In this document: positions 1-6,433 of the stretch, piece by piece
How positions within the stretch are numbered: position 1 is the stretch's first letter
How the letters are laid out: the number at the start of each line of letters is the position of its first letter
Source of the DNA: a virus
Lineage: Duplodnaviria; Heunggongvirae; Uroviricota; Caudoviricetes
DNA: 9,444 nt
Direction: 5' to 3' (one strand)
Virus record (IMG/VR): IMGVR_UViG_2648501787_000016
The notes under the pieces: generated by a model
Told to the model about the DNA's origin: nothing
Database searches by the model: none
Seen by the model: the letters and a program-made list of their open reading frames with translations, nothing else
Program-made: the position numbers and the translations under genes

Positions 1-1053
1 TTACGGGGTAATGCCAACCGCTGCCGCCACTTTGTCGCCACTTGGCAGCGTTGCCAGAGGATTGAAACGGAGCGCCGTTTCTAGATGATCCGGTGCCAGA
101 TGTGCGTAACGCATAGTCATTTTTATATCGTGGTGTCCGAGAATTTTTTGTAAGGCCAGAATGTTTCCACCCGACATCATGAAGTGCGCCGCAAACGTAT
201 GGCGCAGAACGTGTGTGAGTTGACCGCGAGGGAGCACGATAGACGTTTTTTCCATCACGGATAAAAATTGAAAATAGCAGTCTGTGAAGAAATTGAACCC
301 ATCAAGCGCCATGATCTCTTCGTAAAGCTCTTTACTGATAGGGATGCTTCTGTTTTTCTTCCCCTTCGTTCTGACAAAGGTAATTCGGTATTTGGTCACC
401 TGTGAGCGGGTAAGATTTACGGCTTCACGCCAGCGTGCGCCTGTGCTTAAGCATATCTTAACTACCAGTGCCAGAATTGGGTCCTGACGTTTGCAATCAG
501 CCAGCAATTCAACAATCTGCTCATGGGTAAGCCATGCCATCTCTTTTTCTGCGATGGTGAATTTTCGCATGTTCTCCAGTGGGTTCGGATACGACCATTC
601 GCCCAGACGGGATAGTTCGCTAAAAACACTACTTAGATAGCTTTGCTCCAGGTTAATGGTGACCGGGCTTGCTCCTTTCTTCCATTTCTCGCTGAAGTAG
701 ATCTCGCCTGTCAGGCGTTTATCTCGATAGTGGGCAAACATTTTAGAGGTGAGATCGGTTGCAAGAGGATTGCCCAGAGCGTCAACCATCAACAGCAATT
801 TGTCATAGACATGCTGCCCAGCTGTCAGAGATTTACCATGTAGTTTGAACCATAGCTCAACCACGTCTTTCAGTGTTCGACGATCCACTGATTCACCCAG
901 CCAGGGCTTTGCTTCGGTTTCTTCCATCGTGTGGCGCTCAAAAGCCAGTGCTTCGCCTTTGGTGGCGAATTGTTTACGCACACGACGCCCACTTCGTCCG
1001 GCGGGGTAACATTCGCAAAGCCATTTCCCTGTGGTTAGTTTTCGTACTGCCAT
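1..1053 (-). CDS. int: P2/186-type tyrosine integrase (site-specific recombinase)
   Basis: 350-codon ORF whose stop codon is at window positions 1-3. Translation carries tyrosine-recombinase signatures (LSTGARWREAVNL; C-terminal HVLRHTFAAHF...GHHDIKMTMRYAHL with the catalytic Tyr). It lies downstream of the repressor gene in the same orientation, as in P2/186 phages. Confidence 0.9.
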   Translation of the reverse strand: MAVRKLTTGKWLCECYPAGRSGRRVRKQFATKGEALAFERHTMEETEAKPWLGESVDRRTLKDVVELWFKLHGKSLTAGQHVYDKLLLMVDALGNPLATDLTSKMFAHYRDKRLTGEIYFSEKWKKGASPVTINLEQSYLSSVFSELSRLGEWSYPNPLENMRKFTIAEKEMAWLTHEQIVELLADCKRQDPILALVVKICLSTGARWREAVNLTRSQVTKYRITFVRTKGKKNRSIPISKELYEEIMALDGFNFFTDCYFQFLSVMEKTSIVLPRGQLTHVLRHTFAAHFMMSGGNILALQKILGHHDIKMTMRYAHLAPDHLETALRFNPLATLPSGDKVAAAVGITP

Positions 1054-1057
1054 AAAA

Positions 1058-1077
1058 AGCCCTCATATCAGAGGGCT
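1058..1077 (-). terminator. Stem-loop (7-bp stem AGCCCTC/GAGGGCT, 6-nt loop) followed on the minus strand by five U and then the int start codon; putative attenuator/terminator that also sequesters the int Shine-Dalgarno
   Basis: Perfect complementarity of 1058-1064 with 1071-1077 read directly. On the minus-strand RNA the 3' arm GAGGGCU is followed by UUUU and AUG at 1053-1051. Function is inferred. Confidence 0.4.
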
Positions 1078-1135: not shown

Positions 1136-2812
1136 CTAAGCAACATGTAGTTCATCGTTGGCGGAAGTGGCTGCTTTGCGCTCCTGCTCAATAGCTAGAG
1201 ACTCTCTATATTCTTTCGCCTCTGCAAACATTGTCCAGTGGGCGTTGATGTTCATGTCTTCAATAACTGATTTGATTTCTTTTAAATTTACGTTAAAAAA
1301 CTCTTTTCGTGAGTTAATTTTATTGACCTGCTTTTCGTTGAAAACTTTATGCAGATGGTTTTCTAATGATGGTGCATCATCACTATAAATCATCGCATGA
1401 ACATCGAACGAAAAAGGAACACTAGCATCTCCGAGTTCACGAACACGATCAAGTGGTTCAAGGCGGCGTGTCATTCCAATTTTATATACATCTTCGCCAA
1501 ATGAACCAATATTACTAATGATATAGACGTGGCCTGATCTGGTTTGTTGAGCCATAGAAATAGCTCGTTGATTTTTAGCTTCAGCTTCTTCATATTTTAA
1601 CTGTAGTTCAGCTATTTTTTGCTCTAAAGCTAAGCGTTGTTCTTCATTTGCAAGCATAAGTTCTTTCGTTGCTTTATTTATAGCTTGCTGAATAGCTTTT
1701 TCTTCTTTTTCAGCTTCTTTTATCGCTTTTTCATATTCTCTACGAGCTCTTTCCTCTTCACGAAGCTGTTCTTTAATCCTTCTTTGCTCTTCTTTTTCTT
1801 CGAGCATAATTTCATTAACTGCTACACCCCATTTTAGCTCGTTGAGTCTTGCCTGAAGATAGATGTCACTTATTTTTGCGGACCTAAAGGCAGAGCCATT
1901 GTAATTTACTAGTTGAAATGCATCTTTTATTTCTTGGGAAAGTTTTCCAAAATTGTTGTGTTTGACTTTTGATAAAATACTGTCAACTCTTCCATTGAAG
2001 GCATCCAAAACAAAGTTTATGGCAGTATTACGCCTGTTTTGCTCAACATAATCACACGAAGCAGCTTTATTAGTTTTTATTAATGATTTGGTTAACTCTC
2101 TGGCTTTTTGTAATTCCTTGCCTGCATCTGTAAATTCATAATTTTCTGCCAGCTCATCAAGTACACTACGGTTAGGGATGATCCATTCATCACCATAACC
2201 TTCAATTTTATTTTTCATTGATTTTGCAACTGCTTCATATTTTTCTGCAAACTCTTTAGCTTCATATGCTGAACCAGCAATCTCCTTTGCTCTTTCTTCT
2301 GCATCAGAAATAATTTTTACTGCATTGTCATTAGCATTTGAGATTAGCTCATTTGCTTTATTATTAGCATTATCAAGACGTTCTTTGGCTTTCAGGCGTG
2401 CATCGCGAGCGTCTTTGGTGATTGCTATAGCTTCGCTATTAGCGTTGCTTATTGTCATCTGAGCTTGATAATTTGCTTCGTTTACTGTTTTAGCCGCCTT
2501 AATTTGGGCTTCATCTATTTTTTGCTTGGCTATTGAGTCCGCATTTTTTATCTTATTCTCTGCATCCATTACTGCGCTGTGCAATTCTTCGTATTGCCAC
2601 AATGGTGCTGCTCGCCCTTCAAGCTCTGATAATTCTCGTACGGTCTGTGCTAGTTTTTCTTGATTTTCAATCAGTTGGTTAGAAAGGGCTATGTTGTTAG
2701 CTGTCAGGTTATCTATAGCCGCTTTGTGTTTTTTACTTTGTTTAAATAATATTACAGCTAGAACAGGGGCGAGAAATGCTAATAAGAGTATAACGATGGC
2801 AAATGAATTCAT
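1136..2812 (-). CDS. Membrane-anchored coiled-coil protein with C-terminal GIY-YIG-like (T5orf172/MUG113-type) putative nuclease domain; candidate prophage-encoded defence/exclusion protein
   Basis: 558-aa ORF with RBS AAGGA 7 nt upstream of the ATG at 2812. N-terminal hydrophobic helix (FAIVILLLAFLAPVLAVILF, residues 4-23). Ala/Lys/Glu/Asn-rich helical region with 11-residue periodicity (residues ~137-180). Central globular region (~200-330), second coiled coil (EEKEEQRRIKEQLREEERARREYEKAIKEAEKEEK). C-terminal domain with GIY-YIG-like motifs (GHVYIISNIGSFGEDVYKIGMTRR ... conserved acidic residues), residues ~427-530. Domain assignment is from motif recognition, not a search. Confidence 0.85.
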   Translation of the reverse strand: MNSFAIVILLLAFLAPVLAVILFKQSKKHKAAIDNLTANNIALSNQLIENQEKLAQTVRELSELEGRAAPLWQYEELHSAVMDAENKIKNADSIAKQKIDEAQIKAAKTVNEANYQAQMTISNANSEAIAITKDARDARLKAKERLDNANNKANELISNANDNAVKIISDAEERAKEIAGSAYEAKEFAEKYEAVAKSMKNKIEGYGDEWIIPNRSVLDELAENYEFTDAGKELQKARELTKSLIKTNKAASCDYVEQNRRNTAINFVLDAFNGRVDSILSKVKHNNFGKLSQEIKDAFQLVNYNGSAFRSAKISDIYLQARLNELKWGVAVNEIMLEEKEEQRRIKEQLREEERARREYEKAIKEAEKEEKAIQQAINKATKELMLANEEQRLALEQKIAELQLKYEEAEAKNQRAISMAQQTRSGHVYIISNIGSFGEDVYKIGMTRRLEPLDRVRELGDASVPFSFDVHAMIYSDDAPSLENHLHKVFNEKQVNKINSRKEFFNVNLKEIKSVIEDMNINAHWTMFAEAKEYRESLAIEQERKAATSANDELHVA

Positions 2813-2832
2813 TTTAAAATCCTTTTACTATA

Positions 2833-3429
2833 TTAATTCGAGACTATTGTACTTCTTATACAAGCAACCACTTCAATATCAGAAAATGCACATTCAAAGC
2901 TATTCTCTGCCGTTGTAATTTTAATCATTCCTTTAGGAAGCCTTGTGATTTTTCGAATGGAATAGGTTCCGTCGATATTGATTAACCAGTTTCCATCAAG
3001 TACTTCAGAAAATTTTTGATCACAAATGTATGTGACGAGTCCATCCTGAACAACAATTGGTGATGAAAGGTTTGCAGGAAGAAATGATGAATCGAAGACA
3101 TATGAACCGTCTTCAATCATTTTGCCTGCGGCAAGGCGAAACTTAACAAGCTCTTCTGTAGCTGCTGTCAGCGAGCTTTGCTTAAGGCCTTGTCCGGTAG
3201 TTAACCATTTGAGGGAGGTTCCTGTTTCAAGAGCACATTGGATTATCCAGTCAGCAGGAAATGTATCCCGCAAATACCTGTTCGCTAGTGTGCTTTTTGA
3301 TACTTCCAAGTGATCAGCTAAAGCCTGTCGTGTCGTAAAGCCATAGGCTTCGACTAATCGCTCAATCGCAGCCTTACCACCTTTATTGGGATTTATTTTG
3401 ATCTCACTTGGGTACTTTGATGTTGACAT
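2833..3429 (-). CDS. cI: Phage CI-type immunity repressor (186-CI-like: N-terminal HTH domain, C-terminal oligomerisation domain)
   Basis: 198-aa ORF. N-terminal region (AIERLVEAYGFTTRQALADHLEVSKSTLANRYLRDTFPADWIIQCALETGTSLKWLTTGQG) resembles the phage CI repressor HTH family. No obvious Ser-Lys autoprotease motif, consistent with antirepressor-dependent induction. Positioned opposite the apl/cII genes across the switch region. Confidence 0.8.
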   Translation of the reverse strand: MSTSKYPSEIKINPNKGGKAAIERLVEAYGFTTRQALADHLEVSKSTLANRYLRDTFPADWIIQCALETGTSLKWLTTGQGLKQSSLTAATEELVKFRLAAGKMIEDGSYVFDSSFLPANLSSPIVVQDGLVTYICDQKFSEVLDGNWLINIDGTYSIRKITRLPKGMIKITTAENSFECAFSDIEVVACIRSTIVSN

Positions 3430-5352: not shown

Positions 5353-5579
5353 TGGCTGATGCAATGGATCTCGTACAGCAGCGCGTTGAAGAAGAACGCC
5401 AGCGCCATATCCGTGCAGCCCGTGCCAAATCACCGGGCGTGTCACGCGTACTTTGCATTGAATGTGAAGCGCCAATTCCGCCAGCACGACGCCGCGCCAT
5501 TCCGGGAGTGCAGCTTTGCATTACCTGTCAGGAAATCGCAGAACTGAAAGGCAAACATTACAACGGAGGTGCTGTATGA
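5352..5579 (+). CDS. TraR/DksA-family C4 zinc-finger protein (phage-type)
   Basis: 75-aa ORF with CxxC-(17)-CxxC (CIECEAPIPPARRRAIPGVQLCITC), characteristic of DksA/TraR zinc fingers common in P2/186 early operons. AGGAG 8 nt upstream. Confidence 0.7.
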   Translation: MADAMDLVQQRVEEERQRHIRAARAKSPGVSRVLCIECEAPIPPARRRAIPGVQLCITCQEIAELKGKHYNGGAV

Positions 5580-6433
5580 GCACCATCCTGAAATGGGCGG
5601 GAAATAAAACCGCCATTATGCCAGAACTGAAAAAATACCTTCCTGCTGGCCCGCGACTGGTTGAACCTTTCGCGGGTTCCTGTGCTGTGATGATGGAAAC
5701 GGATTATCCCAGCTATCTGGTTGCGGATATTAATCCTGATTTAATCAACCTCTATAAAAAGGTTGCCGCTGATTGTGAATCGTTTATATCTCGCGCCAGA
5801 GTTTTATTTGAGATCGCAAACAGGGAGGTGGCTTATTACAACATAAGGCAGGAGTTTAACTGCTCAACTGAAATTACTGATTTCATGAAAGCGGTATATT
5901 TCCTGTATCTCAATCGTCACGGTTACCGTGGTTTATGTCGCTATAACAAGAGCGGGCATTTCAACATTCCCTACGGTAATTATAAAAATCCGTATTTCCC
6001 TGAAAAAGAACTTCGCACATTTGCAGAAAAAGCCCAGCGAGCAACGTTTATCTGCGCCAGCTTTGATGAAACGCTGGCGATGTTGAAGGCGGGAGATGTG
6101 GTGTATTGCGATCCGCCATATGACGGTGTGTTTTCCGGCTATCACACTGATGGTTTCACTGAAGATGACCAGTATCACCTGGCATCCGTTCTTGAACATC
6201 GGTCATCAGAAGGACATCCGGTCATTGTTTCTAACAGTGACACATCCCTGATCCGTTCGCTGTATCGCAATTTTACTCACCACTATATCAAGGTAAAACG
6301 CAGCATCGGTGTGGCAGCTGGCGAGGGTAAATCAGCAACAGAAATCATTGCTGTTTCCGGGCCGCGCTGCTGGATGGGATTTGATTATTCGCGTGGCGTG
6401 GATAGTTCTGCCGTGTACGAAGTACGTGCATGA
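5576..6433 (+). CDS. dam: DNA adenine methyltransferase (Dam family, N6-adenine)
   Basis: 285-aa ORF from ATG 5576 (GGAGG upstream; overlaps the TraR-like stop as ATGA). Close similarity by eye to E. coli Dam: LKWAGNK, VEPFAGS (motif I), [15 protein letters not shown], and catalytic DPPY ([10 protein letters not shown]). Confidence 0.85.

Follow-up and report, generated by a model that had tools for sequence, protein, structure and literature searches.

A probable SNIPE (PD-λ-1) family protein is encoded between cI and int of a 186-like prophage

The stretch of viral DNA analysed here (IMG/VR record IMGVR_UViG_2648501787_000016; 9,444 nucleotides, hereafter the window) carries a gene for a protein of 558 amino acid residues between the CI repressor gene (cI) and the integrase gene (int). 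This gene very probably encodes a protein of the SNIPE (PD-λ-1) family, carried between cI and int of a 186-like prophage (Peduoviridae) as cargo that is expressed in the lysogen. PD-λ-1 came from a functional selection (Vassallo et al. 2022, PMC9519451). It was later renamed SNIPE and its mechanism was worked out (Saxton et al., Nature 2026, PMC13190303). The literature and the databases already cover the family, its architecture and mechanism, and even the annotation of this very sequence, so the value of the finding as a discovery is small. What the window adds is a natural and widespread variant of SNIPE with a different N-terminal adapter, which can be used to probe the hypothesis that the adapter sets phage specificity.

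The assignment to the family is based on profile matches and on a comparison with the reference protein. The window protein matches the PADLOC PD-Lambda-1 model PDLC03976 with an E-value of 2.4e-120 and 400.7 bits (residues 106-550 against positions 36-481 of 491), and model PDLC03977 with an E-value of 7.9e-117. For calibration, the reference SNIPE scores 659 bits, compared with 401 bits for the window protein. PHROG 1847 matches the protein almost end to end, and the PADLOC candidate PDC-S57 matches the nuclease domain (E 4.5e-20, residues 424-546). In RefSeq, copies that are 100% identical are named 'SNIPE associated domain-containing protein' (WP_021574262), and a homologue is labelled 'PD-lambda-1' in one phage record. 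An earlier note, made from the letters of the window, had proposed a single-gene anti-phage candidate with a membrane-anchored GIY-YIG-type nuclease, which fits the SNIPE / PD-λ-1 family; it had placed this architecture in no named defence system, while PADLOC, RefSeq and the current Pfam nomenclature all supply the name.

The reference SNIPE was rebuilt from the published supplementary primers and is a 500-residue 'DUF4041 domain-containing protein' of the WP_109866709 type. The primers match the reference gene in 131 of 5,426 complete Escherichia coli (E. coli) genomes, which form the sample of all E. coli counts given below. In strain 118UI, the reference gene lies in a lambdoid prophage, where it is flanked by ren and a P22AR-like gene. 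The termini of the rebuilt protein agree with the cloning primers, and each of the nine residues that Saxton et al. mutated (E414, L253, W257, E264, K305, I308, T319, E223 and N250) is found at its stated position. The window protein has a sequence identity of 50% to this reference over residues 265-555 (BLASTP E 4e-77; hhalign probability 100). By region, the identity is 26% for the DUF4041 segment, defined as the part deleted in the reference ΔDUF4041 construct, 47.5% for the linker helix and 74% for the nuclease domain. The window and Klebsiella loci (cI, int) have no neighbour gene in common with the reference locus (ren, P22AR-like gene), which argues for a single-gene system.

Domain and residue matches show that the window protein has the full architecture of the family, with a predicted single-pass membrane anchor, DUF4041, a linker helix and a GIY-YIG/T5orf172 nuclease that includes the catalytic glutamate (Table 1). 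The earlier note had recognized an N-terminal transmembrane helix, long helical repeats, a second coiled coil and GIY-YIG-like motifs of the T5orf172/MUG113 type, and each of these was recovered here. The transmembrane helix, a prediction from hydropathy, is preceded by 3 residues and followed by the Lys-rich stretch KQSKKHK; the topology of the window protein is therefore predicted to be N-out, C-in. The reference SNIPE is a single-pass inner-membrane protein with its N-terminus outside and its DUF4041 and nuclease domains cytoplasmic, a topology that was established experimentally (PMC13190303). In the same report, which analysed 474 SNIPE homologues, a transmembrane helix lies within the first 70 residues in 66% of the homologues. 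As to the long helical repeats, residues 25-215 of the window protein have an 11-residue periodicity (z = 7.0 against shuffles), and the motif ISNAN recurs. The second coiled coil corresponds to the two AlphaFold2 helices of the linker.

A Pfam search for T5orf172, MUG113 and DUF4041, proposed in the same note, was positive for all three. T5orf172 matches residues 427-520 with 63.3 bits (cutoff 20) and MUG113 matches residues 443-520 with 72.7 bits (cutoff 22.3). The motifs GHVYIISN and YKIGMTRR start at residues 427 and 443, respectively. The GIY-YIG motif set consists of G427-H-V-Y430, Y443-K-I-G446, R449/R450, E484 and N497/N500, all near-invariant except Y443. In an alignment of 40 diverse homologues, with identities down to about 33%, the near-invariant residues are G427, V429, Y430, K444, G446, R449, R450, E484, N497 and N500. 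The primer oDS93 (E414A) of the reference encodes APSL[A]KKLHDVF and aligns to APSLENHLHKVF of the window protein. T5orf172 and MUG113 are placed in the GIY-YIG clan by the Pfam classification. The AlphaFold2 model made from the diverse 40-sequence alignment has a mean predicted local distance difference test (pLDDT) score of 78. It comprises a helical DUF4041 region (residues 229-309), a long linker (residues 316-425) and a β-β-α-β-α core (residues 427-490). Another AlphaFold2 model, made from a shallow alignment of 21 close homologues, had a mean pLDDT of 51.9 and was discarded. Foldseek gave no significant match in the Protein Data Bank (PDB), and neither phmmer nor a profile hmmsearch retrieved a PDB sequence for the DUF4041 or the nuclease domain. 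What supports the GIY-YIG assignment is thus the set of Pfam families, the motifs and the identity of 74% to the validated domain, rather than an independent fold match. The T5orf172-type nuclease was also identified as GIY-YIG by HHpred in PMC13190303.

Table 1 Features of the window that bear on the putative SNIPE gene (positions are those of the window).
Feature	Position	Strand	Basis
Probable SNIPE / PD-λ-1 family coding sequence, 558 aa	1136..2812	−	ATG-initiated open reading frame in six-frame listing; identical to RefSeq WP_021574262
Shine-Dalgarno AAGGA	2820..2824	−	7 nt before SNIPE gene ATG; sequence
186-type CI repressor, 198 aa, directly upstream, co-oriented with SNIPE gene	2833..3429	−	Pfam Phage_CI_repr and Phage_CI_C
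P2/186-type tyrosine integrase, 350 aa, downstream, co-oriented with SNIPE gene	1..1053	−	Pfam Int_N and Phage_integrase
Terminator-like hairpin AGCCCTC-TGATAT-GAGGGCT, then TTTTT, then int ATG	1058..1077	−	Terminator scan and sequence; downstream of SNIPE gene
Predicted N-terminal transmembrane helix, aa 4-23	2744..2803	−	Kyte-Doolittle 3.16 over 19 aa; sole segment >1.6
Long helical region ('adapter'), aa 25-204	2201..2740	−	Lag-11 autocorrelation; AlphaFold2 helices 2-67, 69-179, 181-204
DUF4041 (PF13250, now named 'SNIPE'), aa 267-322	1847..2014	−	Pfam E 3.1e-12, 46.6 bits, gathering cutoff 27
Glu/Lys-rich linker helix, aa 323-425, DUF4041 to nuclease	1538..1846	−	AlphaFold2 helices 316-387, 390-425
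GIY-YIG-type nuclease domain (T5orf172/MUG113), aa 427-520	1253..1534	−	Pfam E 3.7e-20 and 3.2e-17
E484 codon, counterpart of reference SNIPE catalytic E414	1361..1363	−	Primer oDS93 alignment and residue map

A mechanism for the window protein can be proposed by homology. The reference SNIPE is found in association with both ManYZ and the tape-measure protein, and its N-terminal region contacts ManYZ; it leaves adsorption unblocked but cuts λ DNA while this is being injected, not afterwards (PMC13190303). By analogy, the window protein would be anchored in the inner membrane. During the injection of a phage genome (of siphoviruses in the reference case), DUF4041 would engage the tape-measure protein and the DNA, and the nuclease would cut the entering DNA, so that the cell would survive, as in a direct defence. 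It is also conceivable that the tethered nuclease is a toxic, abortive-infection effector, which is released or activated on infection, degrades the chromosome and kills the host. PMC13190303 reports that the reference SNIPE without its transmembrane helix is toxic and makes double-strand breaks in host DNA that depend on E414, so an attack on the chromosome is possible in principle. We nevertheless consider such an effector very improbable here, since the same source describes cells carrying the reference SNIPE as surviving and growing on even at a high multiplicity of infection, unlike those with the abortive-infection control PD-λ-3, and since the window protein has kept the architecture and the catalytic residues of the reference. 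Of the two analogies drawn in the earlier note, abortive infection is therefore not sustained, the reference giving a direct defence, while superinfection exclusion is closer, as membrane-acting exclusion systems are likened to SNIPE in that paper.

Public annotations of the gene point elsewhere. The records of Escherichia phage vB_EcoM-813R9 and Klebsiella phage KP12 annotate it as 'chromosome segregation ATPase'. This name, or 'vacuolar-type H+-ATPase subunit H' ('V-type ATPase subunit H'), is what the phage records ON470620 and OM835953 and the JGI names give. Pfam detects no ATPase domain in the window protein, and these names look like artefacts of coiled-coil composition; the misleading annotations are corrected here. 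T5orf172-type domains occur also in phage endonuclease-like genes. Together with the ATPase name in the phage records and the low GC content of the gene (0.37, with 0.27 at third codon positions, GC3) relative to its flanks, this would suit a GIY-YIG endonuclease of the selfish, homing type, or else a housekeeping protein of the phage, in either case with no role in defence. We give such a reading almost no credence. A membrane anchor, DUF4041 and a full-length PD-Lambda-1 match are unlike homing endonucleases, the protein has no ATPase domain, and the gene is absent from phage 186 and most relatives. The homing-endonuclease, ATPase and core-phage-gene readings were accordingly rejected on domain content, on the full-length match and on the accessory distribution described below.

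The 1.7-kb cargo gene that the earlier note had seen between cI and int coincides exactly with the open reading frame listed in Table 1. It is a real gene, and not a chance open reading frame, on the evidence of its homologues and of its substitution pattern. More than 8,000 database proteins match its product, and homologues of the same length of 558 residues, with identities of 82-85%, are found in Klebsiella, Citrobacter, Salmonella, Enterobacter and other Enterobacteriaceae. The ratio of non-synonymous to synonymous substitution rates (dN/dS), computed against an E. coli allele of 94.5% identity, is 0.05 overall, with a peak of 0.17 in the first 80 codons, which shows strong purifying selection on the gene; for the Klebsiella allele the ratio could not be used, synonymous sites being saturated.

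The layout of the locus points to expression in the lysogen, because the start of the gene follows the cI stop codon by 20 nt, AAGGA provides it with a ribosome-binding site of its own, and the promoter scan shows no promoter-like site on the minus strand between it and cI. In phage 186, cI and int form a lysogenic operon that is transcribed from pL. Judging from the gene layout, co-transcription of the SNIPE gene with cI from the lysogenic promoter is probable, and the lysogen would then be protected continuously. The promoter scan did not find the lysogenic promoter upstream of cI. The terminator-like hairpin in front of int may limit int expression from the lysogenic transcript. The Shine-Dalgarno sequence of int (GAGG) sits within the 3' arm of this hairpin. 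In Klebsiella phage 4LV2017, a hairpin of different sequence is found at the equivalent place (about 1085-1110 in the numbering of the 4LV2017 locus), and the structure that precedes int looks conserved between this phage and the window prophage. The segment from the SNIPE stop codon to the hairpin (1078-1135) is partly kept in prophages that lack SNIPE, reading ACTGTnTnTnTAACCAGTnnTCAATGT in 4LV2017, and many E. coli matches reach 1115-1135; this segment is thus part of the int module and not of the cargo.

A survey of 186-like relatives, which the earlier note had suggested, shows that the SNIPE gene is accessory and not core. The SNIPE allele, at a nucleotide identity of at least 90%, is found in 164 of the E. 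coli genomes surveyed, always chromosomal and in single copy. The same integrase allele is present in 1,135 of them, and SNIPE adjoins it in just 165. The absence of SNIPE from 186 and most relatives also argues against a core function. Among the genomes that share int, the homology ends at several points from 1064 to 1152, among them 1133-1135, which abuts the SNIPE stop codon (1136). More widely, homologues occur in 41 phage records, among them ES18, phiP27 and streptococcal prophages. Window-type SNIPE homologues in Synechococcus phages and in viruses of Marinitoga (Thermotogota) are 52-55% identical across the greater part of their length, a very broad range of hosts at such identity.

The SNIPE gene is closely linked to one allele of cI. 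Its 5' end is present in all 161 of the full-length matches to the cI allele in the E. coli genomes (161/161). The GC3 of cI is also low (0.33, compared with the 0.27 of SNIPE), while it is 0.51-0.57 in int and gpA. This linkage, and the AT-rich composition of both genes, suggest that cI and the SNIPE gene were acquired and are inherited as one module of immunity plus defence. Klebsiella prophages have the same order cI(198)–SNIPE(558)–int, with identical spacers of 20 nt and 82 nt.

The strict linkage, within the lysogeny operon, could also be taken to mean that the protein, although of the same family, acts in superinfection exclusion, coupled to the immunity module, with related P2/186-like or other non-siphovirus phages as its targets, and is not a general defence against siphoviruses. 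The adapter and much of DUF4041, which are both proposed to set specificity in PMC13190303, differ from those of the reference. However, the reference SNIPE protects against siphoviruses, and in that paper it gave no protection against any BASEL myovirus or podovirus. Furthermore, nothing points to a myovirus target, and the linkage to cI may reflect the co-inheritance of a low-GC module. We regard this alternative as unlikely.

The N-terminal part of the window protein is where it departs most from the reference, and several points here weigh against transferring everything that is known of SNIPE. Residues upstream of 265 do not align with the reference in either BLASTP or hhalign, and the DUF4041 segment is only 26% identical. 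The co-transcription with cI, although probable, derives from the layout and the 186 paradigm. According to PMC13190303, the N-terminal region is poorly conserved across homologues, and it is proposed that the N-terminal adapter and DUF4041 set phage specificity. As the N-terminal ~264 residues are unrelated to the reference, and as this region is argued to be a variable adapter, the association with ManYZ and the target range are not transferable, and the membrane partner and phage range of the window protein probably differ from those of the reference.

The adapter of the window protein weakly matches ATP synthase subunit b of Bacillus PS3 (6N2Y; E 0.035). NCBIfam gave sub-threshold coiled-coil matches alone (DivIVA, V-ATPase E, SMC), which were treated as compositional. 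A search with residues 1-264 in a representative library of 1.84 billion proteins found 325 proteins at E ≤ 1e-3, of which 204 at E ≤ 1e-10, and the matches align mostly to residues ~80-264. Of 10 long matches, 8 are again proteins with DUF4041 and T5orf172/MUG113, which places the window protein in a large SNIPE subfamily and gives no evidence that the N-terminal region is a module reused in other effector types. A 506-residue thioredoxin-like/NHL-repeat protein, without DUF4041 or a nuclease domain, matches residues 162-264 of the window protein with its residues 385-487 (E 4e-19); the gene call behind it may be truncated or fused. We put forward, tentatively and as something that may well prove otherwise, that this large subfamily, with its ATP-synthase-b-like adapter and diverged DUF4041, targets a different inner-membrane entry route, with a phage range unlike the λ/ManYZ/siphovirus case. 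Through the gene's strict coupling to one cI allele, immunity and entry defence would then be inherited together in 186-like prophages as a single module.

Among enterobacterial 186-like prophages, the cargo of the cI–int slot varies. The earlier note had held that the repressor and integrase genes are normally adjacent. This is so in phage 186, RE-2010, SEN8 and ST437-OXA245phi4.1, where the slot is empty and cI abuts int, but many other relatives carry something in it. In PsP3, the slot holds a DUF2511 gene, and in 4LV2017 a gene for a hypothetical protein of 349 residues. Known or candidate defence genes are found in two of the relatives examined: Yersinia phage vB_YenM_31.17 has an AriA/AriB (PARIS-like) pair, and E. 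coli EC0880B has PDC-M11A/B together with a DUF3644-like gene and IS4. In other E. coli prophages, which have the same int and lie, like that of EC0880B, at the same attachment site on the rcdA side, the slot contains open reading frames of 63-71 residues. In E. coli NCTC8623 (L018:4636-5619), a DUF4917 gene (PADLOC PDC-S21, E 9e-122) lies between int and rcdA, which suggests a second cargo position beyond int, at the prophage end.

What remains of the window is an early region of the 186 type, with CII, DUF5347, DUF2732, a TraR/DksA zinc finger, a Dam methylase, the replication protein gpA and DinI. The orphan Dam-type N6-adenine methyltransferase at 5576-6433 (+) matches Pfam MethyltransfD12 and PADLOC oMTase (4e-110). 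Its gene overlaps the start of gpA (6430), and likewise in RE-2010, SEN8 and E. coli prophages. The window shares 99.9% identity with Escherichia phage vB_EcoM-813R9 and 95.5% with Klebsiella phage KP12.

A defence hotspot between cI and int has been described in Vibrio K139-like P2-related phages (Rousset et al. 2022, PMC9122126). The slot of the window is like that hotspot, and like the old/tin and fun loci of P2 (PMC9122126), in that a small variable defence locus lies between conserved phage genes. With the Vibrio hotspot it also shares the cI–int position. In relatives of the window prophage, the slot is occupied by PARIS-like and PDC-M11 cargo. It differs from the Vibrio and P2 hotspots in its location in enterobacterial 186-like prophages, of which we met no description in the literature covered. 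At the level of the protein, PDC-S57 and other stand-alone T5orf172 proteins have the nuclease domain in common with the window protein, which alone has the transmembrane/DUF4041 module.

The closest known system is the reference SNIPE. Both are prophage-borne single genes, and both proteins have an N-terminal single-pass transmembrane helix, DUF4041, a Glu/Lys-rich linker helix and a C-terminal GIY-YIG/T5orf172 nuclease. The window protein is 58 residues longer, and its carrier is a 186-like myovirus prophage, with the gene in the cI–int slot, whereas the reference is carried by a lambdoid prophage. In PMC13190303, W257R is a gain-of-function change with stronger binding to the tape-measure protein, and it is described as frequent in homologues; at the equivalent of W257 the window protein has a Lys (K327), which resembles the W257R change. 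The N-terminal region is Glu/Lys-rich in the reference, while that of the window protein is ATP-synthase-b-like with an 11-residue period. Supplementary Table 3 of the same report lists, among the N-terminal classes of homologues with a transmembrane helix, ATP synthase subunit b (66 hits) and DivIVA (11 hits). The window protein fits this class of transmembrane, ATP synthase b/DivIVA-like SNIPE homologues, and it matches the listed entry 6N2Y.

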